64,000 nucleotides of DNA from NCBI GenBank assembly GCA_964552755.1, contig CAZKHX010000001.1, forward strand, positions 18,007 through 82,006, read 5' to 3'. This document shows positions 1,635-45,889 of this stretch, piece by piece. This DNA comes from Candidatus Micrarchaeota archaeon (GTDB taxonomy: Archaea > Micrarchaeota > Micrarchaeia > Anstonellales > Bilamarchaeaceae). The notes under the pieces were generated by a model that was not told where the DNA came from, made no database searches, and was given only the letters and a program-made list of their open reading frames with translations. Every line of letters starts with the position of its first letter. The first letter of the stretch is position 1. A program made the translations under genes and the position numbers.

Positions 1635-1656
1635 TCTTGCGGGCATAGGTGAGCCA

Positions 1657-3207: not shown

Positions 3208-3218
3208 ATGGAATTCGC

Positions 3219-6789: not shown

Positions 6790-7420
6790 GCTGCACGGGT
6801 CGGACTGTATCTTCGGCTTTCGCCGTCTAGCGTTCAGTCTCTGAGGATTCTAGATACTTCGGGATCGGTTTGCGGTTCATCTGGGAGATTATCCGGGCTA
6901 TCCGGTCGAGCCCTTCCCTCCGGAGGTGTTCCTTTTCCTCCATCATGGAAAGAACTTCTTCGAACAGCTCGAAGTTCCTGCGCTTGGAAGTCTGCAGCGG
7001 GTGTTCCTTGAAGAACTCAATGAGTTTCCTCAGGTTTTTCACCCCTCTCACCCGGAACTCCTTTCTGTCTCCATTGTTCTGGGTCACTTTGCCGAATCCG
7101 AAGTAATTCCGGATGCGGTAAAGAACTTCCTCATCGCGCTGGTGCTGCACCACCCTGAATTCGGGCAGCACAGTCCAACCGAGGGTCATTTTCCCGAGCT
7201 TGTTCAAAGCCACGTGGAAACAACCTTCTCCGTCGACGAAACCGGCAATCCACTCAGCATCCAGCCTTTCCTGCTGATTGCCTGCACCCATCGCTTTTTC
7301 ACCACCTTCACGAGCTCTGCAGCGGTTATTAACCGTTGCCTCACCGCATTTCCGGTGGTAGCGTGGGATACACAGGTATTCCAGCATATAGCTAGATTTT
7401 ACTAAGGCAACTTAATTCAC
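6790..7420 (-). mobile_element. 23S rRNA intron (domain IV, about E. coli position 1850-1930) carrying a homing-endonuclease ORF
   Basis: About 600-800 nt of extra sequence lie between 23S landmarks that are adjacent in uninterrupted 23S. The insert contains a LAGLIDADG ORF. Exact splice junctions were not determined. Confidence 0.65.
6827..7387 (-). CDS. LAGLIDADG homing endonuclease (single-motif, I-CreI/I-PorI-like) encoded in the 23S intron
   Basis: 'WIAGFVDGEGCFHV' is a classic LAGLIDADG motif. Size is ~150-185 aa. The true start is probably the internal Met (MGAGNQQ..., ~7291) or the ORF is read through from the exon. Confidence 0.75.
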   Translation of the reverse strand: MLEYLCIPRYHRKCGEATVNNRCRAREGGEKAMGAGNQQERLDAEWIAGFVDGEGCFHVALNKLGKMTLGWTVLPEFRVVQHQRDEEVLYRIRNYFGFGKVTQNNGDRKEFRVRGVKNLRKLIEFFKEHPLQTSKRRNFELFEEVLSMMEEKEHLRREGLDRIARIISQMNRKPIPKYLESSETER

Positions 7421-12319: not shown

Positions 12320-12456
12320 AATACTATTGTGGCTGGAAGTGTTTATAAATGTATTTTTTTGGCAGAAGGTGGTTGTTCGCGCACACCCGTGTTCCCGCCC
12401 GGAAATGGGCAAAAAACCGCAACCTTTATATTACACATCCTTCCCTAAATAACCAT

Positions 12457-15193: not shown

Positions 15194-17911
15194 CTAAAGT
15201 CGCTCCCCGTATTCGGTGATGAAGCGCTCGTACTCCGCAAGCAGCCCCGCAGTAATCGAGGGCCGCATGCGCGAGATTATGTCAACAACTTTTTCAGTGG
15301 TCAGCTTCGGCTCCTTGCCCGTTGAGCTCTCCCTGAGCAGGTACATGCGCGCCTGCTGGGCGACCGCAGCGATGTCCGCCCCGGAGAATCCCTCGGAAAC
15401 CTTCGCGAGCTTCTTCAGGTCCAGCCCCGTGGCGAATTCGCCGAGGTGGATGTTGAAGAGCTGCTCGCGCCCGGTGGAGTCCGGCGCGTGCACATAAATT
15501 ATCTTGTCAAAGCGGCCGGGCCTCAGGATTGCGGGGTCGAGCATCTCCGGCTTGTTCGTTGCGCCCACAATCATCACGCCCTCCATTCCCTTTATGCCGT
15601 CCATCTCCACAAGGAACTGGCCGGTGATTTCAGCGCGCCCGATATCCCTAGAAGGCGCAACCGTTTCAATCTCATCTATGAAGATCACGGAAGGCGGGTT
15701 CTCCCGCGCCCGGTTGAAGGTTTCCTTGATTACGTTCACCGCATGGGTGTAGCCGCGTTTCATCAATTGCGCACCGCCCAGCGAAAGGAACGTGATGTCC
15801 AGCTCGTTGGAAGCTGCGCGGACAACAAGCGTCTTGCCGCACCCGGGCGGGCCGAACATCAAAATCCCCTTGGTGGGCTTCACCCCGTACCTCTTCACCA
15901 GCTCGGGGTGCAGCAGCGGCGTCTCAATCGCCTCGCGGAAAGAGCGCTTCACGTCCTCCAAATCCGCAACATCGTTCCAGCCGATTTTCTTCTCCGCCTC
16001 TTTCTCTTTGGGCGCCTTCTCCGCTTCGCGCTCCGCAACCCCTGCGACCGAGCGCTCGAAATCGGTCCTGAACTCATCGTAATCCTCAATCTGCGCAAAA
16101 GTGGTGCTGGGCTTGGTGTGCTCAAGCACAGCGCGCAGCAGATCCATGGTGACCGGCACTACCTTTCCGGTCTTCTTTGCCTGGCCTGCAGCGAGCCCCA
16201 CCGCCTCCTTCACTACGTTTGCGATGTCCGCGCCGGAGTAGCGGTCGCTCTCAGCCGCCAGCTTCCTGTAATCGACCTTTTTCCCGAGTATGCCCTTCTT
16301 TGCGAGCCCTTCCATGTGCACCTTGAATATCGCCTCCCGCGCCTCCTTGTCCGGAAGGTGCATGTACACTATCTTGTCAAAGCGGCCGGGCCTCATGAGC
16401 GCCGGGTCCAGCTTGTTCGGCACATTGGTTGCGCCAACCACGATCACCGGCTTCTTGTTGTCGGTTTTCAGGCCGTCCATTTCCTGGAGGAGGATGCTTA
16501 GCACGCGCGGCCCCACGTCATCTGAAGAGGCTGCCATGCGCTTCTTCCCCAGCGCATCGATTTCATCGAAGAAAAGTATCGCCGGCGCGCTTTCCCGCGC
16601 CTTTGCGAATATCTCGCTTATGTTCTTCTCGCTCTCGCCCACCCATTTGGAGAGGATATCCGAGCTTTTCACATAGTACATGCGGAAGTCCAGCTCCTTT
16701 GAAAGGGCGCGCATGAGCATCGTCTTCCCGGTGCCGGGAGGCCCGAAGAGCAGTATCCCCGAAGGCGGCTTAATCCCGTATGCGCTCGCAAGCTCAACGT
16801 TCTGCAGGGGCAGCACTATGGAGCTGCGCAGCTCATCCTTCACGTCATCGTAGCCGCCCACATCGTCAAGCCCCTCCTCGCCCCCTCCGATGGACATGTC
16901 CTGCAGCCCAAACTTCCCGAATGATTTCATTTTCTCCTTCGCGCTTATCTTGCGCTCGCGGGATACGTGCGCCCCGAGAAAGTCGGCCGCGCCGACCACC
17001 GCAACCGCAAGCAGGAAATAGGGGAACATCATCCAGCTGAATGCGAAGCCCACAAAGGAAAGAAGGAAATATGCAAGGGGCACCAGCAGTATCGCAAGCG
17101 CGGATTTCGTCTGGTTCCACCTCCCCTTCCTGAATACGCGGGGGAGCATCCCCACAACGTAGAGCGCCGCACCCCACACCATCAACTGCACAATGCCGCC
17201 GTCCATGAACAGCAGCGTGACCGAATTGGAGAATATCTTCCCGAGCACCGCCCACACATGGGTTGCGGAGGCGAAGTTGAGTATTGAGCCCAGCGCAGCC
17301 CCGATTTCGGAGCCGAGGGCGCCCAGCTCAACCGGCCCGGCCCTGAGCGCAAGCTGGCCCACCGCGGGCTCATATGCGGAAAGCGTGACCGGCAGGAATG
17401 CGTTGTTCGGCACCAGCCAGAGCGAAGAGAGCAGCAGTATGATGAACACCGCGGGCACGGAAATCAGCACGCTCTTGCGCGAGCCGAAATGGAAGCTGCC
17501 CAGCAGCATGAGCAGGTAAACCATCCCGCCGAGCATTGCAAAGGGTGCGGCGGCAAAGGGCAGGAGGCAGATTACTTCCAGCAGCGCGATTATCCCCCAG
17601 TTGTCGAACATCTCGAAGAAGACAATTGCGAGAAGGAGGAGCCCCAGCCAGCCCCATACGGTGGACTGGAACGCGAATGCGGGGATTGCGAGTATCCATG
17701 TCGCGCCCACCCCGAGGGGCGGCTTCTTCATTGCGATTGCGCCGCAGATGAGCGCGAGGACGAATGCAACCGCAATGGGGTAGAATGGGATTGCGGTGAG
17801 GAGCGCAAGCGCCCCAAGGAATACGAGTATTGCATTCCAGAAGGATTCGCTCTCCTGGAGCTGCTGCGTGTAGGCCACTATCCTTTGCTGAGTGAGCGTC
17901 GCCCCGGCCAT
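15194..17911 (-). CDS. Membrane-anchored tandem AAA+ ATPase (Cdc48/VCP-like D1+D2 with ~330-aa polytopic N-terminal domain)
   Basis: Two Walker A motifs ('GILLFGPPGTGKTML', 'GILMFGPPGCGKTLV'), each followed by Walker B 'DEID/DEIE' and SRH regions. The N-terminal third has ~8-9 predicted TM helices. Confidence 0.85.
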   Translation of the reverse strand: MAGATLTQQRIVAYTQQLQESESFWNAILVFLGALALLTAIPFYPIAVAFVLALICGAIAMKKPPLGVGATWILAIPAFAFQSTVWGWLGLLLLAIVFFEMFDNWGIIALLEVICLLPFAAAPFAMLGGMVYLLMLLGSFHFGSRKSVLISVPAVFIILLLSSLWLVPNNAFLPVTLSAYEPAVGQLALRAGPVELGALGSEIGAALGSILNFASATHVWAVLGKIFSNSVTLLFMDGGIVQLMVWGAALYVVGMLPRVFRKGRWNQTKSALAILLVPLAYFLLSFVGFAFSWMMFPYFLLAVAVVGAADFLGAHVSRERKISAKEKMKSFGKFGLQDMSIGGGEEGLDDVGGYDDVKDELRSSIVLPLQNVELASAYGIKPPSGILLFGPPGTGKTMLMRALSKELDFRMYYVKSSDILSKWVGESEKNISEIFAKARESAPAILFFDEIDALGKKRMAASSDDVGPRVLSILLQEMDGLKTDNKKPVIVVGATNVPNKLDPALMRPGRFDKIVYMHLPDKEAREAIFKVHMEGLAKKGILGKKVDYRKLAAESDRYSGADIANVVKEAVGLAAGQAKKTGKVVPVTMDLLRAVLEHTKPSTTFAQIEDYDEFRTDFERSVAGVAEREAEKAPKEKEAEKKIGWNDVADLEDVKRSFREAIETPLLHPELVKRYGVKPTKGILMFGPPGCGKTLVVRAASNELDITFLSLGGAQLMKRGYTHAVNVIKETFNRARENPPSVIFIDEIETVAPSRDIGRAEITGQFLVEMDGIKGMEGVMIVGATNKPEMLDPAILRPGRFDKIIYVHAPDSTGREQLFNIHLGEFATGLDLKKLAKVSEGFSGADIAAVAQQARMYLLRESSTGKEPKLTTEKVVDIISRMRPSITAGLLAEYERFITEYGERL

Positions 17912-17948: not shown

Positions 17949-18518
17949 TCAGATGCGCTTGAAGGCGGCGACACCCGCGGCCGTCTTGCGGAACCTGTAG
18001 CCCATCTTCATGAGCACCTTCTCGGTCTTTGTGCCCCTCTGCACAACTATGTCCGCCAGCTGCCCGTCGGGGTTTGTGGGCGAGGTAATGGTCACTGCGA
18101 ACTCGAATTCCGCCTCCTTCCCGCGCTTCTCCCTGCGGTCAACGAGCAGCTCGCGCAGGCCCTTCCCCTCATAGGGAAGCAGCACCGCATCATCCTCAAG
18201 GAAAACCGCGTTCTCCTCCCCCTCGACTATCCCCCCCGAGTCCTCATCAAAGTGCACCCCCCATGCGAGGCCCACTGCAACCAGCATCCTGCCGACAAAT
18301 GCGCCGTAGCTCATGCCGAGCCCAAGCACGTCCCCCACTTCTTTTTCGGTAACGGAGAAGAGACACTTCCGCATGATGCGCGAAACCTCTTCCGTATCAG
18401 AGGGCTCAAGGCGCTTGATTTCCGCCTCCTCGAATTCCAAGGGCGCATGGAACTTCTTCTTTTTCTCTTCCTTTTCCTCCTCTTTCTCGTCCACTACGGG
18501 CCCCTTGAACTCAGACAT
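17949..18518 (-). CDS. Hypothetical protein (acidic, K/E-rich N-terminus)
   Basis: ORF in operon context between the Zn-ribbon gene and the AAA gene. No domain recognised. Confidence 0.45.
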   Translation of the reverse strand: MSEFKGPVVDEKEEEKEEKKKKFHAPLEFEEAEIKRLEPSDTEEVSRIMRKCLFSVTEKEVGDVLGLGMSYGAFVGRMLVAVGLAWGVHFDEDSGGIVEGEENAVFLEDDAVLLPYEGKGLRELLVDRREKRGKEAEFEFAVTITSPTNPDGQLADIVVQRGTKTEKVLMKMGYRFRKTAAGVAAFKRI

Positions 18519-18857
18519 TCACACAAACCTCGTCCTGCATACCGGGCAGCGCGTCATGTACCCGCCCATCTCGTAGCCGCATATCGGGCAGCGCCACACC
18601 GTTTTCTTTGCGCGCTCCATCTCCGCCTTGAAGCTGAAGCCGCACTTTTCGCACACATTCGCGTCAAGGTCGTTGAGCTCCTTGCACTTTGGGCACTTCT
18701 TTTTGAACATGGATTTTATGCGGACCCCGCAGCTCGGGCAGCGCTCCATGTCCAGCGTGACCTGCGCCCCGCAGCTCGGGCACTTGAACTTCTTCCCGGC
18801 GAGGGTTGATTTGCCCTTGCCGCCCACCGCGCCCTTCAGCACGTCTAGTATGCCCAT
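18519..18857 (-). CDS. Triple zinc-ribbon protein
   Basis: Three CxxC...CxxC pairs: 'CPSCGAQ..CPSCGV', 'CPKCKEL..CEKCGF', 'CPICGYE..CPVCRT'. It abuts the upstream gene. Confidence 0.6.
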   Translation of the reverse strand: MGILDVLKGAVGGKGKSTLAGKKFKCPSCGAQVTLDMERCPSCGVRIKSMFKKKCPKCKELNDLDANVCEKCGFSFKAEMERAKKTVWRCPICGYEMGGYMTRCPVCRTRFV

Positions 18858-19870
18858 CTTGCCACCAGCGGCGCAAGCAGTATCAGAAGCGAAACGCAGC
18901 AGACCTTCTTCTCTTCGGGCACTGGCCTGTTGAACGGGTCGAAGCCTTCATCCCCGCCGCCCCCTTCAAGGGAGCCGCTGCCCGGGCTACCCGTTTCCTT
19001 CTCCACGGCGGGCAGCTCCTCCGGGAGCTCCCCCCCGCACTCATTCTCCATCGCGGCGTTCACCACCGAGAGGTCCAAATCGTAATCGCCCGCCTCCAGG
19101 TCGGATTCGAGCGAGGCGATTGCCGCGTCAACCGTGGAGCTGGAGCAGGACCTGTCGCTCTTCACCTTGAGCACGCCGTCAATTTTTTTCACCGCGGCCT
19201 CGCATGCGGCCTTGCCCTCCGAATATTCGCGCGCATCCTCGAGCGCGGGGCCGAGCAGGCTGGCCGCGCTGCTCACCTTGCACTGGCTCAAGAATGTGCG
19301 GGCGCTGCCCGCCTTGCCCGAAAGGCTTTCCACATCAAAGGGGCAGCATGCTCCGCTCGTGGTGCAGTAGTCCCCGCCCTCGAGCCCGGAGTAGAGCGCC
19401 TCCAGCTCGTCCGCATCCTCGATTGCCTGCGATTCGGAAGATGAGGGGTAATGGGTGAGGTTGTCCAGCTCTATAATATAGTAATAGTCGTCCCCGAGCT
19501 CGAACTTGAGCACTTCCACCCCGTCGAGGGTTTCCTCGGGCTCGCCCCCGAACTGGAAGGGCATCTCAAGGTCCTCGTTGTCCCCACACACGCTCCCGTA
19601 GGAGGAAATGCTGCACTCTCCGATTTCCACCCATCCCCCTGTTTCCCGGTCCATGTAGTAGAAGGTTGCGGTTTCGGATTCGCCGTACGGGTTGATTATC
19701 CATATTTCGAAGCTCACTATGGAGGGGCCGCTCGAGCCGCAGTTGGGTATCCTGTAGCCCGGGTGCACGCCCCTTACCTCTACGTCTGAATCGTCCATCT
19801 CGGTTGCGGCAAAAGCAAAGCCGGAAAGCATCAGGAAGCCTGCCAGCAGCAGGAACAGCGGCCTTTTCAT
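18845..19870 (-). CDS. Secreted Cys/acidic-rich protein with N-terminal signal peptide and C-terminal hydrophobic anchor
   Basis: 'MKRPLFLLLAGFLMLSGFAFA' is a signal peptide. The C-terminus 'KKVCCVSLLILLAPLVARWAY' is hydrophobic. First gene of the minus-strand operon. Confidence 0.6.
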   Translation of the reverse strand: MKRPLFLLLAGFLMLSGFAFAATEMDDSDVEVRGVHPGYRIPNCGSSGPSIVSFEIWIINPYGESETATFYYMDRETGGWVEIGECSISSYGSVCGDNEDLEMPFQFGGEPEETLDGVEVLKFELGDDYYYIIELDNLTHYPSSSESQAIEDADELEALYSGLEGGDYCTTSGACCPFDVESLSGKAGSARTFLSQCKVSSAASLLGPALEDAREYSEGKAACEAAVKKIDGVLKVKSDRSCSSSTVDAAIASLESDLEAGDYDLDLSVVNAAMENECGGELPEELPAVEKETGSPGSGSLEGGGGDEGFDPFNRPVPEEKKVCCVSLLILLAPLVARWAY

Positions 19871-19922
19871 GCGTCAGGATTAACCGGCAACCCTTTTTAT
19901 CTTTTTCCTCGAAAGTGGCGCA
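19870..19922. promoter_or_regulatory. Short divergent intergenic region with AT-rich TATA-like element between the two operons of the membrane-system block
   Basis: 'CCTTTTTATCTTTTT' lies ~30 nt upstream of ATG 19922. The same element read on the other strand precedes the minus-strand operon start (19870). Confidence 0.4.
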
Positions 19923-21187
19923 TGCGAAAGGCGCTTCTGCTACTGGCAGTGATTGCCCTGTGCCATGCAGGCGGCGCCTCCCCCAAAGTAGACCTCCCTG
20001 AGCTCGGGTTCGTATTCGTTGGCGCGGCAGTGCTCCTTTCCACGGCATTCATCGCGATAGCGTACATGGTCTCCAGCGCGTTCCAGAACCCGCAGGCGAT
20101 TGCATGGTCGAAGAACCAGCTGCGGGAACTGATTGTCGGGGTGTTCATAGTGGTACTGGTTGTCGGCGCGTACGTGGCGGCGAACGAGCTCATCTCCAGC
20201 ATGACCGGCTACCCCAACGCGGTGGAGCTGGGGGAGGACAACATCCGCGATATACTCGCCCCGATAGAAAAGATATACAAGAAGGTGGGCGAGGCCTATT
20301 TCACGCTCGGCCAGTACCAGGGCTCTTCCACCTCATACGTCTCTGGCAACCTCGGCTACATATACTATCATGAGTCCAAGAGCCCGTATTACGGGGTGAG
20401 CCCGGTGATGGGCAGCCTCAACCAGCAGACCTACCAGCTCACGATGCAGATACTCTCCTTCCGCTTCCTGCTTGTGCTTCTCCAGTACATAGACGTAGTG
20501 GTGCCGAATTTCCTCCTTCCGCTGGGCATGGCCTTCCGCGTGTTCCCGTTCACGAAAAAGATAGGGAACACGCTGATTGCGCTCGCTCTCGGCGCGCTCT
20601 TCATGCTGCCCGCGTCCCTGCTTGTGGTGGACGAGATGCGGAAGGCAATCACGTTCCAGCATGTGGACGCGGCCGCGCTCATGAGCTTCCAGGTGAGCAG
20701 CGCCATGGGCGAGATGACCGGCAGCGCCACAGGAGATGCGCTCTACAGCCTCCTCATATGGCCCTACCTGGTCGCAAAGGAAACCTGCGAAATAGCGACA
20801 GTCCGCACGTTCTTCTCTTTGGGGGAAATAGTGTGGGGCGTCATATATGCGACGCTTGCCGCGATAAAGTGCCTCGCCGGCTATGCGGCCTGCTGGGTGA
20901 TTGAGTTCAACTTCTTCGTGTTCTTCCTGTGGCCGTGGATAATGTTCTTTGCGCAGAACATACTCGCGGTGCTTGTCGCGATAGCCGGCACCCCGTCAGC
21001 GGGGTTCATCTACGACCTGCTGGTCGCGGACATAGTAAAATACCTATTCCCAGCGGTGAGCGAGCTCACCACCTTCTCCATAATGTCAATAATAGTGATA
21101 GCGGTAATCACGTTCACAGGAACGCGCTCGATATCTGTCGCCCTGGGAGGCGAGTACGCCCTTTCAGGGCTTTCGAGGCTGATATGA
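19922..21187 (+). CDS. Polytopic membrane protein, paralog M1 of a 6-member tandem family
   Basis: Signal-like N-terminus, multiple TM helices, core motif 'LLPLGMAFRVFPFTKKIGNTLIALALGALFMLP', C-terminus '...LSGLSRLI'. Stop overlaps the next start (ATGATGA). Confidence 0.75.
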   Translation: MRKALLLLAVIALCHAGGASPKVDLPELGFVFVGAAVLLSTAFIAIAYMVSSAFQNPQAIAWSKNQLRELIVGVFIVVLVVGAYVAANELISSMTGYPNAVELGEDNIRDILAPIEKIYKKVGEAYFTLGQYQGSSTSYVSGNLGYIYYHESKSPYYGVSPVMGSLNQQTYQLTMQILSFRFLLVLLQYIDVVVPNFLLPLGMAFRVFPFTKKIGNTLIALALGALFMLPASLLVVDEMRKAITFQHVDAAALMSFQVSSAMGEMTGSATGDALYSLLIWPYLVAKETCEIATVRTFFSLGEIVWGVIYATLAAIKCLAGYAACWVIEFNFFVFFLWPWIMFFAQNILAVLVAIAGTPSAGFIYDLLVADIVKYLFPAVSELTTFSIMSIIVIAVITFTGTRSISVALGGEYALSGLSRLI

Positions 21188-22074
21188 TGAGGGCCGCGCT
21201 CTTCCTCCTGCTGCTTGCGCCGCTGTGCTCCGCGGCAACCTGCGACTTCGCGAGCGACGTGTTCGCGGATGCAATCCCGATAATCGCCGCTGCGATACTT
21301 TTCTCAGTGGCGCTTGCCGCAATAATGTACATGGCAGGCAGCGTGCTGCACGACCCCGGCCTGCACGTGGGCAGCAAGGACCTGCTGTTCCAGGCATTCG
21401 TCTCCATACTGCTAGTGCTCTTCATACAGGGGCTGTTCACCGGGCTGTGCCTCATGACGGCAGATTTCCTGGGAGGGCAGGATGCCCTCTCCACCGCAAT
21501 CTACGATCTGAGGCAGCTCAAGATTGAGGGTGCGCAGATACTCACCAACCTGATGAAGAAGGTGGTGAACGAGAAGTTCACCGCGGCGTATTTCTCCGGC
21601 TACTACATCCCGCTGAGCGGGGGCGAGACGTTTTTCCCCTACGGGGAGCACAACGCATATGCGCGCCATGCGGAAATCGTCTTCGACATGGCGATGATCG
21701 GCTACGTGAGCGTGGGCATACAGAGCATGATACTGAAAGGGATACGGGACCTCACGCTCGCGATACTGCTCCCGTTCGGGCTGATACTGCGCTCCCTCCC
21801 CAAGCTCAGGGAGGGCGGCAACATCCTCATCGCGCTCGCTCTCGCATTATATGTGGTATTGCCGTTTGCGTATGCTGTGAATTCCACCGCTGCGGACATC
21901 ATCCCTGATTTCTGCGACGGCGATGACGGGGTGTTCGGCGCATGCGGGGATGGGTACGGGTTCGGCACGGTCGGGCTCTACCTGTTCCGTACGGTATTCC
22001 TACCGAACCTCGCGCTGGTGATTTTCGCAACTTCCGCAGGCGCGCTGGTGAAAGTCGCGAAGGTGATTCCATGA
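21184..22074 (+). CDS. Polytopic membrane protein, paralog M2
   Basis: 'MMRAALFLLLLAPLCSA' N-terminus; core motif 'LLPFGLILRSLPKLREGGNILIALALALYVVLP'. ATGA overlap with M3. Confidence 0.7.
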   Translation: MMRAALFLLLLAPLCSAATCDFASDVFADAIPIIAAAILFSVALAAIMYMAGSVLHDPGLHVGSKDLLFQAFVSILLVLFIQGLFTGLCLMTADFLGGQDALSTAIYDLRQLKIEGAQILTNLMKKVVNEKFTAAYFSGYYIPLSGGETFFPYGEHNAYARHAEIVFDMAMIGYVSVGIQSMILKGIRDLTLAILLPFGLILRSLPKLREGGNILIALALALYVVLPFAYAVNSTAADIIPDFCDGDDGVFGACGDGYGFGTVGLYLFRTVFLPNLALVIFATSAGALVKVAKVIP

Positions 22075-23879
22075 ACAGGCGCATAGCGGCATTGCTGCTC
22101 CTCGCGATATTCCTTTTCGGGTGCGCCACGGAAGGCACTGCGACCGAAAGCGCGATAATCGAGGCGCAGGAGCGCGACACGCTCGTAGGCAACATGGTCG
22201 CGAACTGGGAGCTCTTCGCGGTAATGCTGATGCTCATCTCCGTGGGCCTTGTCGCAATGGCGTATGCGATTTCCATCTCCTTCAACCTCCCCGACCTGAG
22301 GGCATGGGCGGACGTTGAGCTCTCGGAAGTGTTCACCACCGCGCTCATAGTGATTTTCATAATCGCGATACTGGTATTCGTGGATGTTACTGCCGGCGCG
22401 ATGGTTGCAAGCGAGCCGATGTTCGCAGGGACGTGCGACCCGATGCTGAATCCCGAGGCCGGGCATGCCTTCTGCCCGTCCCTGCTCGCAAAGGAATACA
22501 TCGGCCAGTACGTGGATGCGGCGGAAACGCTTTACGAAAAGCTCACCAAGCGCGCGATAAACAAGGCGCAGGATGCGACCTACTCCTCCGGGCTCGGCAT
22601 CTCTTACCAGATTTACCTCTACCTCTCCATCTCATGGAGGAACCAGCCGTGGGAGATGATGAATGTGGAGCGGCTGGAGCAGCTAATCAATTTCACCGGC
22701 ATGGTGCTGGGCGCGCTGCACACGCAGAGGTTCCTGATAGATTCCATGTCGCTCGGCTTCGGGCCGATTGCCCTGCTCCTTGGCATAGTGTTCCGCTCGT
22801 TCTTCGTAACGCGCAAGATGGGCGGCCTGCTGATGGCATTTGGAATTGGGTTCATGCTGGTCTACCCCGCGTCGTATGCGCTAGGCTGGTTCACGCTTAA
22901 CGTTGCGATTTACGGAGTGGAGAACGTTGCGAGCGGCCCCACGGGCACATGCCCGCAGTCCTGCCTGCAGGCCCCTCCTTCCGGCTTCTACACCGACACG
23001 CTGGAGCCCGCGGCGTACAATGACGTTTATGCGGCCGCACTGGAAGAGGCGGACGGGGATGCGGAAGCGGCAAATGATGTCCTCCGCGGGTTCTTCAATG
23101 GCTCTACCCAGCGCCTCGGGGGCATTGAGTCGTGCGAATACTACGGCAATGAAGATGCGCTGAACTGCAGCTCCGCATGCAGGAGCCTCCCCTACCCGAT
23201 GCAGTCCTCGGGCTGCGCCGCGCGGGAGGCGGCATGCGCGGAGATGCCCGATGCGTGCATAATTTCGCACTATTACGATTCCGCGGACCCGGTGCTCCAG
23301 AACATAGATGCCGCAGCGGAGGTGAAGGCATGCCCGGCGGACTGCCAGCCCCTCGTGCCGATGAAGAGGGACTGCATCGAGGAATACGGGTATTCATGCC
23401 CGTCCCAGTGCAGGTACGTGATACTGGATACCGGGACCGGCGCGACAAAGACCGAGCCGGGGTGCTGGTGCACCGAATATTACCCAACTAATGCGCTCGA
23501 GCTATGGAGCGGAGCCCGCGCGGAGGAGAGCTGCGTGTACATAATTCCGGAAAAGGTCTATGACCAGCCGACCTACTGCAATGACTGCAGCTACACACTC
23601 GATCCCGGGCTTGCGTACAAGCCGCAGGTGTTCGTGGACTGCACTTCCCTTTGCGGCTCATCCACCAACCCCACCATAAACACCGAGGACCCGGCAACCG
23701 CTTCGAACAAGGTGGACGGGTTCATAGGGAACTCGGACATCAAGTCCGCGGCGAAGCTGGTGGTCCCCGCGTTCCTGCTGCCGCTGTTCAACCTCGCGGT
23801 AACCTTCATATTCATACAGACGCTTTCCCCGATGCTCGGCGGGGACATCGACATACCGGGCATGATGAGGCTGATATGA
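22071..23879 (+). CDS. Polytopic membrane protein, paralog M3, with ~290-aa Cys-rich extracytoplasmic insertion
   Basis: 'MNRRIAALLLLAIFLFGC' lipobox-like N-terminus; core motif 'IALLLGIVFRSFFVTRKMGGLLMAFGIGFMLVYP'; >25 Cys in the 22900-23760 segment; C-terminus '...IPGMMRLI'. Confidence 0.7.
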   Translation: MNRRIAALLLLAIFLFGCATEGTATESAIIEAQERDTLVGNMVANWELFAVMLMLISVGLVAMAYAISISFNLPDLRAWADVELSEVFTTALIVIFIIAILVFVDVTAGAMVASEPMFAGTCDPMLNPEAGHAFCPSLLAKEYIGQYVDAAETLYEKLTKRAINKAQDATYSSGLGISYQIYLYLSISWRNQPWEMMNVERLEQLINFTGMVLGALHTQRFLIDSMSLGFGPIALLLGIVFRSFFVTRKMGGLLMAFGIGFMLVYPASYALGWFTLNVAIYGVENVASGPTGTCPQSCLQAPPSGFYTDTLEPAAYNDVYAAALEEADGDAEAANDVLRGFFNGSTQRLGGIESCEYYGNEDALNCSSACRSLPYPMQSSGCAAREAACAEMPDACIISHYYDSADPVLQNIDAAAEVKACPADCQPLVPMKRDCIEEYGYSCPSQCRYVILDTGTGATKTEPGCWCTEYYPTNALELWSGARAEESCVYIIPEKVYDQPTYCNDCSYTLDPGLAYKPQVFVDCTSLCGSSTNPTINTEDPATASNKVDGFIGNSDIKSAAKLVVPAFLLPLFNLAVTFIFIQTLSPMLGGDIDIPGMMRLI

Positions 23880-24922
23880 TGAGGAAGCTGCTGCTGTTCG
23901 TGCTGCTGGCCGTTGCGGCCTGCTGGGCTGCCGAGCCCTATGAATGGCAGGCGCTCTCCATCATGGCGGTGTTCGTCGCGTTCATAGTCCTGGTAATCCT
24001 GTACATGCTCACCTACCTTGCGAATTCGCCGGAAATGCGCACAATGGTGAGCAGCGAGATGTACCAGGTGATATTCACCCTTTTCATAATCGCGATATTC
24101 ATCGGGGTGGAGGCGTTCTCCGCGGAAGTGATCGGGCCGGCTTTCGGCCTCGATTTCGGGGCGGCGGAGGGCCAGAACCAGATAGACTACGCACTGGAGG
24201 TCACGGGCGGCCCGGACGCATCCGACGGCCTCATCGCCTACCAGTGGGGCGAGATGCTCTCCTTCGCAAACAACGTGGTCTCGCCGCTGGGCACGCTTTC
24301 CGCGCTGAGCGCAAGGTGCTCGTTCCTCGGGTTCTCCTTCGGGTTCGCGGGCTGCGCAGGGCTTGCGGTGCCGTTCGCCTCCGCGTCCCTCGCAATGCGC
24401 GTGCTCTCAACCTCGCTGCTTATGCTCAATTCACAATACTTCCTGCTGAAGCTCGCGCAGGGCTTCTTCTTCCCGGTGCTGCTGCCGGTGGGGCTGTTCC
24501 TGCGCTCGTTCCACGTCACTAGGGGCGCGGGCGCCCTCCTCATTGCAATTGCCGCGGCATTCTATTTCATGTACCCGGTCGGCGTGCTCGTGACAAAGGG
24601 GATGGCGGACATGGTGGACTACCCGGACCCGGACATCCCGCACTTCGAGGCGCCGGACCCGACCGAGGCAGGGGAAATCCTTGGCGTGGACCTGCCCCCG
24701 GACGTCGACTGCAACCCCTTCGACAATGACTACAAATACACGAAAAGCGCGATGAACAAGCTGCTTGATGACGATTTCCTGCAGCCCATGCTGTTCCACT
24801 TCATGATTGCCGGCCTGCTGAATACTGCCCTGAGCCTTATGATAGCCCTCTCCGTTGTCGGGGGGCTTGCGAGGCTGTTCGGCGCGGAGGTTGACGTTTC
24901 CGCGCTTGCGAGGATGATATGA
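23877..24922 (+). CDS. Polytopic membrane protein, paralog M4
   Basis: 'MMRKLLLFVLLAVAACWA' N-terminus; core 'LLPVGLFLRSFHVTRGAGALLIAIAAAFYFMYP'; C-terminus '...SALARMI'. ATGATGA overlaps at both ends. Confidence 0.75.
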
Positions 24923-25932
24923 TGGGATGCCCTATTGACCTTTCAGGAGTTTACGGCCTTTCGGTGCTGGCACTGGGCATTACATTGATTGCCGTGGGGC
25001 TTGCTTATGCGCTCGGGCAGATGCTCAGGAACCCGCGCTTCAACGTTTGGGCAAAGACGGAAGTGTTCCAGGTATTCGTTACATTCGTGCTGGTGATTGT
25101 CACGCTTTTCCTTGTGGACAGCCTGTGCACGTTCCAGTATGGCGCGCTCACCTCGCTTGCGCCCATCTCGGTTGAGGCGTATGAGCATCCCGCAATATCG
25201 GATACGGACGTGGTGGCGGACGCCGCGGGAGGCTACCTCAAGAACCTCGCGTATTTCGCGCACATAGCAATGGGCAACTCCCGCGCGGTTTACGGCGGGC
25301 TGGAGAAGGCGCTGCGCTATAGCCGCTCCCCATGCATGCCCGCGTGGCTCCTCTGCATGCTCGGGCCGAACGGGTACACGCTCGCGCCCTACAGGGGCGG
25401 CTCCGGATGGATACAGGTCGCGAACCTCACCCTCTACACAGACACAATCTCATATCTCACGGTGCTTGCGCAGCTTGCGCTGCTGCAGTTCATACTCGGG
25501 GGCGGGCTCGCGGTGCTGATGCCCGCGGCAATAATCATACGCTCCCTCCCGTTCATGCGGATATTCGGGGGAGGCCTGCTCGCGATATGCATATCCCTGC
25601 TCATAGTCTACCCGTTCCTGCTGATGGCGGAATCGCTTTTCTGGAACCCGTATGAGATGATAGGGCAGGAGAATTTCGATGGCCTGGAAGACCTTGCAGG
25701 GAAGGCGCGCGATGCCAGCCACTCCGATGACCTCACGCTTTGGTCGGGAGGCGACGGCTATTCCAAGCTGCAGAGGTACTTCGACCAGGTGTTCCTCGGC
25801 TCGTCCGCCACATTCATGTCCTCGACTTTCCTGTTCATGCTGAACGTGCTTGTGATTACTGCCTCCGCGAGGGAGTTCGGCCGCGTGCTCGGAGTCGAGG
25901 TTGACATGAGCCGGCTGATGCAGATAGTGTAG
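24919..25932 (+). CDS. Polytopic membrane protein, paralog M5
   Basis: Core 'LMPAAIIIRSLPFMRIFGGGLLAICISLLIVYP'; C-terminus '...SRLMQIV'. Confidence 0.7.
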   Translation: MMGCPIDLSGVYGLSVLALGITLIAVGLAYALGQMLRNPRFNVWAKTEVFQVFVTFVLVIVTLFLVDSLCTFQYGALTSLAPISVEAYEHPAISDTDVVADAAGGYLKNLAYFAHIAMGNSRAVYGGLEKALRYSRSPCMPAWLLCMLGPNGYTLAPYRGGSGWIQVANLTLYTDTISYLTVLAQLALLQFILGGGLAVLMPAAIIIRSLPFMRIFGGGLLAICISLLIVYPFLLMAESLFWNPYEMIGQENFDGLEDLAGKARDASHSDDLTLWSGGDGYSKLQRYFDQVFLGSSATFMSSTFLFMLNVLVITASAREFGRVLGVEVDMSRLMQIV

Positions 25933-25940
25933 GTGATGAG

Positions 25941-26954
25941 ATGACTGCAGGCGTTGATGAGATGCTCGGGACGGTTTTCCTCAGCCAGTGGGTTGCGCAA
26001 ATGGGCTGGTTCACCAATGCGGTGCTCGCGGTCATCGTCACCGCCTTCATATTCGGGATAATCTACGTGATTGCGTACGCAATCAACTCCTTCCCGCTGA
26101 GGAGGTACGCGACATCGGAGTTCCTGCAGCTCGCGGCTACCGCGCTGATGGTAATCGGGCTGGTGGCCTTCATCCAATTGGGCTCTGCCGCGGTTTCCAC
26201 CTCCCTCGAGGGACTGGGCGTGCCATGCATGGGCGAAACATATGTTGAGCCGATAAGCGCCGCGATGTGCAAGACGGAAGAGCGGCTGATATTCTTCGAT
26301 GAGGCATGGAGCTTCCTGCGCGAGGACGTGCGCGGGGCGGAATGGTTCTACTACTTCACGATTTCCTATTACGGCGTGCCGCTGTTCCAGGGGCTTTGGG
26401 TGGCGTCAATCCACAGGCAGGTGGAGACCGCGCACTACCTTGCGTACAAGATAGTGTCCATACAGCTTTCCCTCAATGCGCAGATGTTCCTGCTGAAATA
26501 CATACGGGAAAACATGCTCACCATCTTCCTGCCGCTGGGGATAATACTGCGCACGTTCTATTTCACGCGCGGCATAGGCGGGTTCTTCATAGCGCTGGCG
26601 CTGTCCCTGTATTTCATATACCCCACAGCGCTGTTCATCATGACCGCGGTTTCCATCGGGCCGCCGGCCGTGCCGGTCCCCTCGCTTACCACAGTGGGCA
26701 TCTGCGACCTTCCAATGTACTCCGGAATGGCGTTCGGCTCCGCGAACCTTGCGACCATGGCCGGCACGGGCGGGAGCACGATGGCCTCCGCAAGCGTGAA
26801 CACAATCGCATCCTTTGTGAATACGGTATTCGTGAGGATGTTCTATGAGAACATGGTCGCGTTTGCGATTGCGCTTACCGCGCTCCGCTACGCAGGGGTG
26901 CTGCTTGGCACCGAGACAGGGGTGTTCCTGCACATGGTTTCGAGGTGGATATGA
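25941..26954 (+). CDS. Polytopic membrane protein, paralog M6
   Basis: Core 'FLPLGIILRTFYFTRGIGGFFIALALSLYFIYP'; C-terminus '...HMVSRWI'. ATGA overlap with the next gene. Confidence 0.7.
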   Translation: MTAGVDEMLGTVFLSQWVAQMGWFTNAVLAVIVTAFIFGIIYVIAYAINSFPLRRYATSEFLQLAATALMVIGLVAFIQLGSAAVSTSLEGLGVPCMGETYVEPISAAMCKTEERLIFFDEAWSFLREDVRGAEWFYYFTISYYGVPLFQGLWVASIHRQVETAHYLAYKIVSIQLSLNAQMFLLKYIRENMLTIFLPLGIILRTFYFTRGIGGFFIALALSLYFIYPTALFIMTAVSIGPPAVPVPSLTTVGICDLPMYSGMAFGSANLATMAGTGGSTMASASVNTIASFVNTVFVRMFYENMVAFAIALTALRYAGVLLGTETGVFLHMVSRWI

Positions 26955-29900
26955 TGAAAAAGCTTCTTGCGCTGCCCGCAATCGCCTTCCTTTTCCTTCT
27001 GGGGTGCAACGCGCCCACTTACCAGGATTGCTGCCTTTACGCGAACGCAAGCGATAGCGGCATCTGCGTGATGCTGAACGGCACAATCTACGATGACAGC
27101 ACCTGCGACATGGAACTGCTCACCTGCAACGTGACGCTGGACGACAGGGAGCTGGAGATCCCCCTCTGCCCGAAAGTGGACAAGGTTAGATGCAACACCT
27201 CCTGCGTGGGCGTGTTCTGCGGCAGCTTCGACTACGACCCGAGGCCGCTGCCCAGCCCCGCGGATGACATGCAGAGCGACGATGAGGAATCGCAGGAGCG
27301 GGTGACTGCAGGCTCCGCTTCCGAGCGCGGGCCGATAAACCTTTTCCAGTCCGAGTGCAGGGTGAAGAACATCACCCCCGCGTTCCTGCGCGCCGCGAAG
27401 AGCACGGGCGGGTTCACGCTCAACGTGTTTCGCTTCGGGGTCGGGAACTCCTTCGCGGAATTCGACGAGGCGATGGCATACTTCCCGCTCACCGACCTCT
27501 CCTGCAGGATAAACATGTACGGGACGAAGGACCGCTACGTGAACTACGTGCTGCCGAACAGCATAGACGGCTCGGAAAAGCTGTGCAGGTTCACCGGCAT
27601 CCTTGACGCGATGTATATCTGCAATATTGATTCCACAATCGAGTCGCACAGCTATTACGACTGCGCGAGCAGATGCGCGCTCGCATACCAGGGCTACGAG
27701 CCCAATGTGGACCCGGACAACCCCTACCCTACGGAGAACGAGGCCGGGGAGCTCGTGGGCAACCCGTTCTCGTACGGGATTTACGGCACCTATTCGCTTG
27801 CTCCGGCCGAGCCGCTTGTGCTGAGCAGCAAGTACCGCGACCAGGTTGACATGTCCGGCATCACGTTCACTTCCACCTCGCCATTCAAGGACGAGTACCA
27901 GCCGGGCTACAACTTCTACGGCGCGACCTTCAGGAAATCCGATTCGCTCAGCGCGGAGAGGGGGGGAATAGACTGGGCAGTCGCAAGATACGGCCTGCCC
28001 ATTTTCTTCACCGATTCCATATACGACTATTACTCCGGGGAGATGGAGGACACGGACTCCATGGAGTTCTCCGGCTCCACCACCGTTTTCACCACCGCGG
28101 AGCAGGACCTGCACGGCGCGTACATCCCGCTGCTCACCCACCACTCGGTTTATGCGGACCAGCTTGCCGAGGGCCACAGGCTAGACAACGGCTCATGGAT
28201 GCCGGGCGCGGAGTTCGAGTGTGCGGACAATTCCGAATGCATCTCCGGCTTCTGCAACACTTTCGACTACCACCGGGGCAACTGCATCCCCAAGGACAAG
28301 TGGATTCTGGGCGAATATATCTCCAACTATGAAGTGCCGTGCGGCTGCTGGGAATACCAGGGCGAGACGCTCTGCCCAGGGATGCAGAGCTATGAGGCGC
28401 AGGCATGGGACGACACAAGCGAAAGGGTGCGCGCGACCGCAGCGCTTTCCGCCCCCGTGCGTGCGCACAAAGAGCTGGAGGTGCTCACCCCGCTGCGGAG
28501 CATGCCCTCCAAGGGCCGCGTGTTTTCCCATGAGGATGATGAGACCGGGGAAACCATCCCCTACGTAGTGATACAGGTCGGCGGGGAAAGCAGGCACCCT
28601 ACTTACGGGTACACTAATTTCGGAGCCCTGGACATGGCAGGCGTGTTCGATGATGAATCGTACAGGGCCGCGATGGCAGCATGGCTCATGGCCGTCGATG
28701 CAAGAACCCTTACCATCGACCAGGCGCTTTCCCGTGACAAGTGGGGCCAGTGCGGCACGGACTGCGGCAAGTTCTACACGACCTTTGCGGAGGCATGCAT
28801 GCCCGAATGGGATTCCGACCCGGATGCGTATGACTATTTCCACATGTGCAGGGAGTTCCCCGAGGTTTCCGGCGGCTCTGCACCCCCCGCCGCAGTCTAC
28901 GGGAAAAAAGTGTCCCCTTCCACCGGGGAAGCGGTGGATTCCGGCTTCTGCGCCTCCCTCAACGGGAACAGCGAGCTGTACGATGAGGTCTTCTGCTATG
29001 AGCGCAACATAGACGATGACTGCGTAGCATGGTCCACTACCGCGATAGTTGTAGAGCCGCGCCCGGTTACTTACCGCGATGAGGAGGGCAGGGAAATTGC
29101 AGGCTATGCTTTCGGCAACTGCCTTGCGGACGAGGACGGCACGGAGCTGCTCACGCACACCTACGGGATTTGCGAGCAGTGCACCTTCCTCACGCTCGCG
29201 AAGCAGGAAATCGTTCCCCTCCCGCAGGACGAGGACGACCCGGGCTACCCAGGGAGCGGCGACAGGGAGGACAACAAGTACTGCCCGAACGTGGTGGTGG
29301 AGACGCCCTACGAGCCGAACGACCCTGCAGTAACGAAATTCGGGAGCCTCGGCCCTTATGACGAGTGGCAGGTTGGCGGCACTCACGGCACCGAGGACTA
29401 TTCTCAGTGCTACATGCCGGACTATTCCGAGAACGGCCTGCAGGAAGCCTGGGCCGACTACCTGCCCAACGCATACTACCTTAAGAGGAAAACCGAGAGC
29501 TACCTAGTGCGGGGCGTGATGCCCGTAATCGTCGCGACCAACGACAGCCTCTGGGAGGCATACACGAGCCCCGGGGGCGAGAGAGACTGGGCGCTGATGG
29601 CGTATTATTGGAACCACATCACGAGGGATGACGAAGGATATGCGCGGGTAACTATAGACGCGAGCCACCCCTACATGATTGAGCTTGCGGAGAACGAGCC
29701 GCAGCTGCTGGAGCAGTTCGCGCAGCATGACGAGGCCGGGGAATACTATGCCTTCGGAGGCCCGCTGCTCCTGAACGGCATACAGGACATGGGCGCCGCG
29801 ATAATCATCGTCGGGAACCAGGACCTTGGCGACTGGAGCAGCATACCCCTGTTCGGCGCTTACAGTGCCGGGGGCGGGGCAAGCAACAGGGACAGGGCCA

Positions 29901-31108
29901 GGGCGGTCCGCCTCATCTGCCCCAACTGCATGGTCGCAGTGGGCGCGGGTTATACCGGATACGGGGGGGATGCCGAGAACAGCTACCAGCGCCGGCTCGA
30001 TTTCGCGAACTTCCTTTTCCGCTACCAGAACGAATCAACGCATTACATACTCAACGGGCCGGACAGCTACAACCTGACCATCCCGTGCGAAGACCCGCGG
30101 CTTGAATGCGACAACGAGGCCCTGAACCTGGTGGACGTGCTTGCGATGAAATGGGAGCTCAGCAAGGAGGATTCCTTCTGCGAAATAGAAAATGAGCAGG
30201 AGCGCTTCCAGGCAATCCTTGACGCGGAAACCGGCCTCGGCTCGCGCATGCTTGCGCGCTTCCACAAGCCGGTCGTGATTACGGACTTCAGCATAGTGCT
30301 CACCGAGTTCGATACCTGCTGGGACGCGGAGAGCGCCGCACGCTTCATGGTATTCCTTTCGGAGCACACGCAGGAGCTTGCGGAGAGCGGCCACCTAGGC
30401 ATAATCTATGATGCATGGACGAAGGAGCGGGCGGAGGCCGCGCCCACGGGCACCGCCACCGCTGCGGAGCAGGGCCGCGCCTACATCCGCGTGGACTCGG
30501 GCGACGTGGACGGCAGGAGGGGCACGTTCTATGAGGGCGCCTTCATCGCCTCGCGCATCTTTGCGGGCTACGAGCACAAGACCTATTTCAACGAGGTGAG
30601 CGCAACCGAGGAATGCTACTGCGAGCCCTGCCTGCCCTCCGACCCGGATGAGATTTGCAACGGCCGCTACCGCGGGGTTGGCTATGAGTGCAAGGACTAT
30701 GACGGCTCGCGCAGCAAATGGTCTGAAATGTGCGTCTCGCTCAACCAGTGCACCCTCCCCGGCGAGGATGATTATGAGATTGAATGCGACGTGATATACA
30801 ACAACGGCACCCGCACCACGGAAACCTACCATTCTGATGACATTGCGGAAACCCCTCAGCTCTACATGGACGTGATTGCCTCAATCGAGGAGGGCTACGG
30901 CACGCCCTGCTTCAACTTCAGCGGCAATTACATAAGCTATGTGAAGATTGGCGAGCCGATTTTCCAGGCAACGCCCACGATGTTCAGGACCGATGGCGAC
31001 ACCGCCAAGTCCTGCACCCCGCTGGAGGGCTTCGACCTTTCCTTCTGCGGCTACACGCCGCCCGTGAGCGACAGGGAGATGCACTGTGAAATACTAGGGG
31101 TGAGGTGA
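26951..31108 (+). CDS. Giant (1387-aa) secreted cysteine-rich lipoprotein
   Basis: 'MMKKLLALPAIAFLFLLGC' is a signal peptide plus lipobox. The protein is very Cys/Asp/Tyr/Asn/Gly-rich throughout and has no TM after the signal. It is translationally coupled to M6. Confidence 0.75.
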   Translation: MMKKLLALPAIAFLFLLGCNAPTYQDCCLYANASDSGICVMLNGTIYDDSTCDMELLTCNVTLDDRELEIPLCPKVDKVRCNTSCVGVFCGSFDYDPRPLPSPADDMQSDDEESQERVTAGSASERGPINLFQSECRVKNITPAFLRAAKSTGGFTLNVFRFGVGNSFAEFDEAMAYFPLTDLSCRINMYGTKDRYVNYVLPNSIDGSEKLCRFTGILDAMYICNIDSTIESHSYYDCASRCALAYQGYEPNVDPDNPYPTENEAGELVGNPFSYGIYGTYSLAPAEPLVLSSKYRDQVDMSGITFTSTSPFKDEYQPGYNFYGATFRKSDSLSAERGGIDWAVARYGLPIFFTDSIYDYYSGEMEDTDSMEFSGSTTVFTTAEQDLHGAYIPLLTHHSVYADQLAEGHRLDNGSWMPGAEFECADNSECISGFCNTFDYHRGNCIPKDKWILGEYISNYEVPCGCWEYQGETLCPGMQSYEAQAWDDTSERVRATAALSAPVRAHKELEVLTPLRSMPSKGRVFSHEDDETGETIPYVVIQVGGESRHPTYGYTNFGALDMAGVFDDESYRAAMAAWLMAVDARTLTIDQALSRDKWGQCGTDCGKFYTTFAEACMPEWDSDPDAYDYFHMCREFPEVSGGSAPPAAVYGKKVSPSTGEAVDSGFCASLNGNSELYDEVFCYERNIDDDCVAWSTTAIVVEPRPVTYRDEEGREIAGYAFGNCLADEDGTELLTHTYGICEQCTFLTLAKQEIVPLPQDEDDPGYPGSGDREDNKYCPNVVVETPYEPNDPAVTKFGSLGPYDEWQVGGTHGTEDYSQCYMPDYSENGLQEAWADYLPNAYYLKRKTESYLVRGVMPVIVATNDSLWEAYTSPGGERDWALMAYYWNHITRDDEGYARVTIDASHPYMIELAENEPQLLEQFAQHDEAGEYYAFGGPLLLNGIQDMGAAIIIVGNQDLGDWSSIPLFGAYSAGGGASNRDRARAVRLICPNCMVAVGAGYTGYGGDAENSYQRRLDFANFLFRYQNESTHYILNGPDSYNLTIPCEDPRLECDNEALNLVDVLAMKWELSKEDSFCEIENEQERFQAILDAETGLGSRMLARFHKPVVITDFSIVLTEFDTCWDAESAARFMVFLSEHTQELAESGHLGIIYDAWTKERAEAAPTGTATAAEQGRAYIRVDSGDVDGRRGTFYEGAFIASRIFAGYEHKTYFNEVSATEECYCEPCLPSDPDEICNGRYRGVGYECKDYDGSRSKWSEMCVSLNQCTLPGEDDYEIECDVIYNNGTRTTETYHSDDIAETPQLYMDVIASIEEGYGTPCFNFSGNYISYVKIGEPIFQATPTMFRTDGDTAKSCTPLEGFDLSFCGYTPPVSDREMHCEILGVR

Positions 31109-31118
31109 GGGTGATTTA

Positions 31119-45783: not shown

Positions 45784-45889
45784 TGGGGCTGTAGGGATTT
45801 GAACCCTAACATGCAGGTTTCTTGAGAGAACTCCGCCGAAGCGGATCTCGCCTGGAGCCTGCCGCGCTACCTGGTTACGCCACAGCCCC
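45784..45889 (-). tRNA. tRNA-Trp(CCA) with ~33-nt intron
   Basis: Acceptor GGGGCUG/CAGCCCC, D-stem GCGU/GCGC, anticodon stem GCAGG...CCUGC, loop 'CUCCAG^intron^A', T-arm UAGGG-UUCAAAU-CCCUA. The intron is a hairpin 'GGAGAUCCGC-UUCG-GCGGAGUUCUC' with no obvious box C/D. Confidence 0.75.

Follow-up and report, generated by a model that had tools for sequence, protein, structure and literature searches.

A cysteine-rich loop, probably extracellular, in the third of six tandem membrane paralogs of a Micrarchaeota operon

Why should one of six tandem membrane-protein paralogs, and only that one, carry a loop of some 290 residues crowded with cysteines? The question is raised by a window of 64,000 nucleotides (nt) of a Candidatus Micrarchaeota archaeon (the whole stretch analysed here; GenBank assembly GCA_964552755.1, contig CAZKHX010000001.1, positions 18,007 to 82,006), whose archaeal large-subunit (LSU) rRNA gene (5788-9376) and tRNAs, including one with an intron, mark it as archaeal. 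Its plus strand carries, at 19922-35156, a compact run of eight genes: the paralogs M1 to M6, then G1, encoding a giant lipoprotein, and then G2, encoding a large bitopic protein. The loop in question is that of M3, the third paralog (22071-23879, plus strand; 602 amino acids, aa). Judged from sequence, it is most likely a disulfide-stabilised ectodomain, and its occurrence across related loci goes together with that of G1.

An earlier note, made from the bare sequence, had placed a large insertion in M3 between the N-terminal transmembrane (TM) region and the last TM segment, and this was borne out: 22900-23760 corresponds to aa 277-563, and so to the whole TM4-TM5 loop, delimited here as a Cys-rich ectodomain of 287 residues (aa 275-561; 22893-23753). 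The motifs it quoted were all found in M3 (CPQSC, CSSAC, CAAREAACAEMPDAC, CPADC, CPSQC, CWC and CNDC), but its figure of more than 25 cysteines was too high, there being 20 in the loop, all within aa 294-528 (22950-23654), and 23 in the whole protein. The loop cysteines fall into five Cx3C motifs (CPQSC, CSSAC, CPADC, CPSQC and CTSLC), one CxxC (CNDC) and single residues. Cysteine makes up 20 of 271 residues in the loop (7.4%) as against 60 of 6415 (0.94%) across 13 of the window's other, cytoplasmic proteins, an excess with a binomial P of 2.6e-12. When the paralogs are aligned, the TM4-TM5 loop measures 293 aa in M3 and 33-71 aa in M2, M4, M5 and M6. The statement that M3 alone has a large loop holds for a Cys-rich one; the corresponding loop of M1 is also enlarged, to 148 aa, but its extra material is hydrophobic and poor in cysteine (3 Cys).

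The location of the loop follows from the order of elements along M3. The protein, starting MNRRIAALL, opens with a predicted signal peptide, MNRRIAALLLLAIFLFGC (22071-22124), that ends in a lipobox-like L-F-G-C with Cys18 at 22122-22124. TM1 (aa 46-70), a short cytoplasmic loop and TM2 (aa 85-108) occupy 22206-22394, as seen by hydropathy and in the helices of an AlphaFold2 (AF2) model. They are succeeded by a first outside loop (aa 109-220; 22395-22730), modeled by AF2 as helices and a beta-hairpin and containing Cys122 and Cys135, and by TM3, the cytoplasmic turn RSFFVTRKMGG, which is a signature of the family, and TM4 (aa 252-274), together at 22731-22892. Beyond the Cys-rich loop, TM5 (aa 562-586) and a conserved cytoplasmic tail, LSPMLGGDIDIPGMMRLI, nearly invariant in M3 orthologs, complete the protein (23754-23876). 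Because five helices come after a signal peptide with a lipobox-like LFGC, the TM2-3 and TM4-5 loops are predicted to lie outside. With the lipobox pattern [LVI][ASTVI][GAS]C, G1 (LLGC) and M3 (LFGC) are both predicted lipoproteins, M3 being non-canonical at position -2, and the lipobox Cys column is occupied in 10 of 18 M3 orthologs. Lipoproteins have been predicted to be prevalent in DPANN archaea (PMC12462473).

Two further indicators agree with this topology. In 326 members of the family, aligned to its profile, lysine and arginine together account for 11.6% of loop 1-2 and 15.6% of loop 3-4, against 5.6% of loop 2-3 and 5.8% of loop 4-5; cysteine is distributed in the opposite sense, at 0.02% and 0.83% in loops 1-2 and 3-4 and at 1.5% and 4.8% in loops 2-3 and 4-5. 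The same partitioning of cysteine holds in the neighbouring proteins, for the 53 cysteines of G1 consist of the lipobox cysteine and 52 others, and those of G2 are confined to its ectodomain, on one side of a TM segment that has 12 Lys/Arg after it and 1 before it. An extracytoplasmic location of the loop, as the earlier note had proposed, is thereby well supported as a prediction, with signal peptide and lipobox, charge bias and cysteine partitioning all in agreement, rather than the cytoplasmic location that it had named as the outcome that would overturn it.

Comparison of orthologs shows which part of the loop is under constraint. A protein identical to M3 (P0001) is present on nine public contigs, and has 20 relatives of 600-860 aa, the named ones all from Micrarchaeota. 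In an 18-ortholog alignment, 12 of the loop cysteines are invariant and most others nearly so; Cys122 and Cys135, in the first loop outside, do not vary in any of the 18, and R242, R248 and G251-G252 of the TM3-TM4 turn are likewise invariant in M3 orthologs. Identity to M3 within the loop is 95% at Cys columns and 24% at all others, with the TM core at 50-63%. The cysteines are the constrained element of the loop, and the disparity between the two kinds of column is the signature of a disulfide scaffold beneath a variable surface. Pairing is also suggested by parity: the number of cysteines in loop 4-5 is even in 30 of the 36 complete orthologs whose loop holds 10 or more, and, for loops of up to 530 residues, in 26 of 27, where counts run from 20 to 50 (P = 2e-7). 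These even counts serve as a fourth independent indication, after signal peptide, charge and cysteine partitioning, that the loop lies outside. Loop 2-3, for its part, holds exactly two cysteines in 135 of 250 family members.

The distribution of the loop was then compared with that of the gene that comes after M6. G1 (26945-31108, plus strand) encodes a protein of 1387 aa in which the lipobox LLGC is followed by a CC motif; its likely start is the ATG at 26951, overlapping the M6 stop. G2 (31119-35156, plus strand; 1345 aa) has an ectodomain of about 200 aa with 10 Cys, a TM segment at aa 208-239, and a cytoplasmic part of 1105 aa that is Cys-free and rich in Ala, Gly, Lys and Glu. Among de-duplicated loci having all six paralogs and at least 1.5 kb of sequence after M6, a long Cys-rich open reading frame (ORF) stands directly after M6 in 24 of 24 loci with a Cys-rich M3 and in 0 of 10 where M3 is Cys-poor (Fisher P = 7.6e-9, without correction for phylogeny). 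Those downstream ORFs that phmmer does not link to G1 still begin, as G1 does, with a lipobox and then CC, and an apparent exception (locus L044) contains an assembly gap. Both types of operon are present in two genomes (loci L020 with L051, and L005 with L052), which argues that they are two distinct paralogous systems and not annotation noise. By these sequence comparisons the evolutionary coupling of the loop and G1 is established, and the co-occurrence of G1 with a Cys-rich M3 supports a functional link, short of proof. G2 homologs come after G1 in most related loci. The "giant surface proteins" of the earlier note are thus apt for G1, which is predicted to be mainly extracellular, and not for G2, which is bitopic with its roughly 1100 Cys-free residues mostly in the cytoplasm. 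One segment of the G2 ectodomain resembles a carboxypeptidase-regulatory-like beta-sandwich, by eye only. The described Micrarchaeum S-layer protein is almost without sulfur amino acids (bioRxiv 10.1101/2021.04.28.441871), and an assignment of the Cys-rich G1 as an S-layer protein of that type was rejected.

The wider family places the loop in context. A scan of one genome per GTDB species with M3 motifs yielded 62 loci (given L numbers here), which by record title are Micrarchaeota/Microcaldota, under the labels Micrarchaeota/Micrarchaeia, Anstonellales or "ainarchaeum", with one exception labelled Woesearchaeota. With a profile of the window paralogs, six tandem members in the same order are found in nearly every full-length locus, and loci having fewer are interrupted by contig ends or assembly gaps. 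Among 1.84 billion representatives (50% identity clusters) there are 2999 family matches at E <= 0.001, 230-1683 residues long, and 2175 at E <= 1e-10. Members may begin with a signal peptide; they have five TM segments, of which TM3 and TM4 are joined by the LRSFxFTRxxGG turn, and are arranged in six tandem copies; most also have the C-terminal tail LGxExD..RxI, which is not clear in the M2 of the window. By these sequence characters, M1 to M6 qualify as a new and unnamed family of Micrarchaeota six-paralog 5-TM proteins.

Within this conserved order the third gene is the variable one, and it is found in three states. In most loci the M3 loop has 293-530 residues and 20-50 Cys; in several it extends to 720-1130 residues with 71-102 Cys and is built of repeated CxxCPxxC[RK] units; and in about a dozen M3 is a protein of 385-470 residues with 2-11 Cys. 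Loop-bearing M3 orthologs were found in over 40 loci. Run against all ORFs of 65 loci, a loop profile matches only third-position paralogs, and therefore the loop belongs specifically to M3 instead of being a shuffled module. When the loop by itself was searched against a database, M3-type proteins were likewise the only matches; because the word-indexed searches, made with the six-paralog alignment and with the loop alone, gave few matches, the absence of the loop from other architectures is only weakly established. The largest M3 orthologs, with 1270-1580 aa, 85-107 Cys and about 20 CxxCPxxC[RK] repeats, are in L031 (10831-14973), L035, L053, L056 and L058. Cys-rich inserts also occur, beside that of M3 or in place of it, in M1 (L043, L057), M4 (L040, L057) and M5 (L039, L056, L061, L063).

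Structure prediction gave a partial view of the protein. The AF2 model of M3, built on an 18-sequence alignment, has a mean pLDDT of 73, with the TM core and first outside loop well predicted and every Cx3C motif lying in or beside a short helical turn. For M5, in which the model shows the core fold of the family, an alignment of 75 members gave a pLDDT of 89.5 and a pTM of 0.85; its helices of 29-44 residues are longer than a membrane span, and on this model they suggest a helical bundle projecting outward. Foldseek comparison of the M3 and M5 models to the PDB gave nothing at E <= 0.001, the best matches being designed helical bundles (E = 0.057). No family match in Pfam or NCBIfam was found for any of the eight operon proteins; six long family members had no Pfam match, and 75 members searched individually in Pfam gave no recurrent family. 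Sequence searches of the PDB with G1, with G2 and with profiles built from the M3 orthologs or from the six paralogs gave no match, and the operon is not described in the literature searched on Micrarchaeota, DPANN and archaeal "dark matter". The system was accordingly rated as lying outside known kinds by family, fold and literature.

Several known systems nonetheless offer analogies. Mycobacterial Mce operons have six tandem Mce paralogs that form a heterohexamer, and the likeness, as analogy only, is of six paralogs in fixed order in one operon that are thought to build a pseudo-symmetric assembly projecting from the membrane. Mce proteins, however, cross the membrane once, contain MCE domains and function together with YrbE permeases and an ATP-binding cassette (ABC) ATPase, whereas M1 to M6 are 5-TM proteins without an MCE domain and with no ABC genes nearby. 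The variant-specific surface proteins of Giardia resemble the M3 loop in having a very Cys-rich extracellular domain with short regular motifs, conserved cysteines on a variable surface and expandable length; they differ in being eukaryotic and single-pass with CxxC as the main motif, whereas in M3 the domain is one loop of an archaeal, polytopic protein and its main motif is C-P-x-x-C-[RK], and no homology was detected between them. Chains of TTYH proteins are among the top Foldseek matches for M5 and M3, below significance (E about 0.09-1.9, TMq 0.10-0.19). TTYH proteins have five TM helices, the N-terminus out and the C-terminus in, and a disulfide-stabilised extracellular helical bundle made from extensions of the TM helices; the analogy lies in this 5-TM helical-bundle architecture, but the TTYH family belongs to eukaryotes and shows no similarity in sequence.

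The explanation preferred here, to which about even chances are given, is that the loop is a disulfide-cross-linked ectodomain by which M3, as a subunit of an M1-M6 membrane complex, co-assembles with G1. The six paralogs, which are probably co-translated, would join at 1:1 stoichiometry in a hetero-oligomer, plausibly shaped as a pseudo-six-fold ring, with the long helices that extend from the TM segments forming an extracellular stalk. The symmetry of this assembly would be broken by the M3 loop, at which G1, and perhaps also the small ectodomain of G2 with its cysteines, would dock or co-assemble, while the cytoplasmic domain of G2 and the conserved C-terminal tails of most M proteins may connect the complex to the cell interior. 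The earlier suggestion that the loop is an adaptor between membrane core and surface proteins has gained comparative support from the co-occurrence with G1; it is the best available reading and an unproven one. Several points weigh against it. The assembly of M1 to M6, its stoichiometry and the contact between M3 and G1 rest on inference. A single ancestral split of the two operon types could explain the co-occurrence, and the Fisher P overstates the independence of the loci. The likeness to the giant lipoprotein that the earlier note remarked on is one of composition (7.4% against 3.8% Cys) and does not extend to homology, with a BLASTP E of 0.14 and a loop profile that matches no G1 in the 65 loci. 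AF2 confidence in the Cys-rich loop is moderate (block means mostly 57-88, a few segments below 50). Finally, the loop ranges from about 290 to about 1130 aa with its non-Cys residues poorly conserved, and a recognition surface that is exposed and evolves fast would account for these properties no less well than a fixed docking site.

Such a surface is the principal alternative, and one that seems possible though on the unlikely side: the loop itself would be a fast-evolving, disulfide-scaffolded face for recognition of or adhesion to host or substrate, with no docking of G1, and the co-occurrence would reflect shared ancestry. It draws on the same contrast between conserved cysteines and freely varying positions (95% against 24%), on the spread in loop size (293 to about 1130 aa, 20-102 Cys), on the building of expanded loops from repeated CxxCPxxC[RK] units, and on the placement of Cys-rich inserts in M1, M4 or M5 instead by other lineages. 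It does not by itself account for the perfect association with G1 (24/24 against 0/10), nor is the loop a mobile module, its profile matching third-position paralogs only; and a recognition surface is compatible with docking rather than exclusive of it. That the cysteines bind metal (zinc or iron-sulfur) in an extracellular metal-binding or redox module, instead of forming disulfides, is judged quite improbable. The regular Cx3C and CxxC spacing would suit it, the CxxCPxxC[RK] repeats of expanded homologs loosely recall cluster-binding motifs, and many of the Micrarchaeota locus records are, judged by title, metagenome-assembled genomes from groundwater or sediment, habitats in which, should they be anoxic, extracellular disulfides would be less certain. 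The strong even-number rule over counts of 20-50 Cys argues otherwise, as do invariant columns that lack conserved His or Asp partners and the absence from the loop of the ferredoxin pattern CxxCxxCxxxCP; the five Cx3C and one CxxC motifs match no iron-sulfur or zinc profile, and no such family was found in Pfam, NCBIfam or the PDB. Least probable by far is that the loop is a cytoplasmic, zinc-finger-like regulatory domain, or that the long ORF is an artefact of annotation or assembly. Nothing specific favours either, beyond the facts that Cys-rich loops can bind zinc and that high-GC DNA gives many spurious ORFs, and both are excluded for practical purposes by topology indicators that all point outside, by the identical protein on nine contigs and loop-bearing orthologs in more than 40 loci, and by the lack of cysteine in the operon's cytoplasmic parts.

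A different kind of explanation concerns the array as a whole. M1 to M6 might serve a secretion or DNA-transfer machine as its membrane channel, in the manner of tandem subunits of VirB6 or CedA type, with the M3 loop as an outer gate or pilus-base element; this is considered improbable, if a shade less so than metal binding. Rickettsiales type IV secretion systems have several tandem VirB6 paralogs, some with large extra domains, and VirB6/TrwI of plasmid R388, like M1 to M6, is a polytopic inner-membrane protein with long helices projecting from the membrane. In the Fermentimicrarchaeum clade a Cys-poor array is followed by two paralogous proteins of about 274 aa with an N-terminal TM hairpin and then by a HerA/VirB4/TraG-like P-loop ATPase (L046 6916-10102; L048 17774-20682; L055 14179-17365), a linkage that hints at a translocation machine and makes the sister array the neighbour of a VirB4/HerA-like ATPase. 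VirB6 (TrwI) chains also appear in both Foldseek lists, from the R388 structures 7o3v and 8rtd: 7o3v_F, which has the widest coverage, at rank 23 for M5 (E = 0.42, TMq 0.31, TMt 0.36), and 8rtd_L at rank 36 for M3 (E = 1.5). These matches are below significance (E = 0.4-1.5, TM-scores under 0.4), and alignment by hhalign of the family profile with R388 TrwI gave a probability of 0.1. No Pfam match to TrbL/VirB6 (PF04610) was found at E <= 1 for M1 to M6 or for any of 75 family members. The ATPase linkage is limited to the one clade, in just those three loci, and neither the window nor any locus whose M3 is Cys-rich has a HerA/VirB4/TraG-like ATPase; nor does the window have VirB4, VirB2 or another type IV secretion gene. 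Membership in VirB6 was therefore rejected on the hhalign result, and the comparison is kept as an analogy only.

The remaining operon genes, all on the plus strand, are M1 (19922-21187; 421 aa, with the hydrophobic insert of 148 aa in its TM4-TM5 loop), M2 (21184-22074; 296 aa, the shortest paralog, with an ATGA overlap to M1 and another to M3), M4 (23876-24922; 348 aa), M5 (24919-25932; 337 aa) and M6 (25941-26954; 337 aa). ATGA overlaps of start and stop are found at five junctions (M1/M2, M2/M3, M3/M4, M4/M5 and M6/G1) and GGTGA-like motifs lie upstream of operon starts, from which it appears that the genes are probably co-translated. M1 to M6 align over their full length, with 19-24% identity to M1, and share the turn LLPLGIxLRSFxFTRxxGG between two hydrophobic helices; the C-terminal tail LGxExD..RxI is seen in M1 and M3 to M6, and is not evident in M2, which ends in VKVAKVIP.

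Divergent from the operon, on the minus strand at 17949-19870, are genes for a secreted, C-terminally anchored protein of 341 aa (12 Cys), a double zinc-ribbon protein of 112 aa and a protein of 189 aa without a family match. The zinc-ribbon and 189-aa genes (17949-18857) adjoin the operon in two ways, upstream and divergent in this clade, or directly after G1 (L024 19033-20063, L029 12645-13628, L045 8382-9298), and their retention beside it in both arrangements suggests a functional link. Beyond them lies a gene for a double-AAA, Cdc48/VCP-like ATPase of 905 aa (15194-17911, minus strand), a placement kept in closer relatives (e.g., L001, L005, L009-L011, L018, L020, L023) and not in distant ones.

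Elsewhere in the window, the LSU rRNA gene (minus strand) is 3589 nt long against a model of 2987 nt, and has within it, on the same strand, an ORF (6827-7387) for a LAGLIDADG homing endonuclease (Pfam E = 1.9e-24); since this ORF sits inside an over-long gene, the latter very likely carries an rRNA intron. No small-subunit rRNA gene was found in the window. At 183-4781 on the plus strand are three tandem paralogs of 483-520 aa, each ending in a phosphoenolpyruvate-utilising-enzyme mobile domain with the remainder free of Pfam matches, and at 10307-12412 on the minus strand is a 701-aa protein with a gingipain-type peptidase C25 domain (E = 8.7e-36), unusual for a small archaeal genome. A tRNA match by Rfam of 106 nt (45784-45889, minus strand), not listed by ARAGORN, probably contains an intron.

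Attachment to host cells is the way of life of Micrarchaeota and other DPANN archaea, and to our knowledge the molecules that make this contact are almost entirely unknown. From lifestyle and architecture, it may be guessed that the operon encodes a cell-surface or host-contact apparatus of these symbionts. A bolder proposal, which must be called doubtful, is that M1 to M6 with G1 and G2 are an undescribed trans-membrane machine specific to Micrarchaeota: a pseudo-hexameric ring, a disulfide-knotted cap made of the M3 loop and G1, and a G2 scaffold of some 1100 residues inside, serving as the structural foundation for attachment to the host or for the intercellular tubes and bridges seen by cryo-tomography in Micrarchaeota-host co-cultures, with the Cys-poor sister operon and its HerA/VirB4-like ATPase as a translocating version. 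The operon is widespread in the phylum and conserved in order, and all of its proteins are without a known family, several being very large and predicted to be surface-exposed. Among the features of the operon, the M3 loop alone would link the membrane core with G1, and it gives a testable handle on how the two may fit together. It also offers a clean natural case of a domain, most likely disulfide-scaffolded, whose size increases from about 290 residues to over 1100 as cysteine pairs are added.

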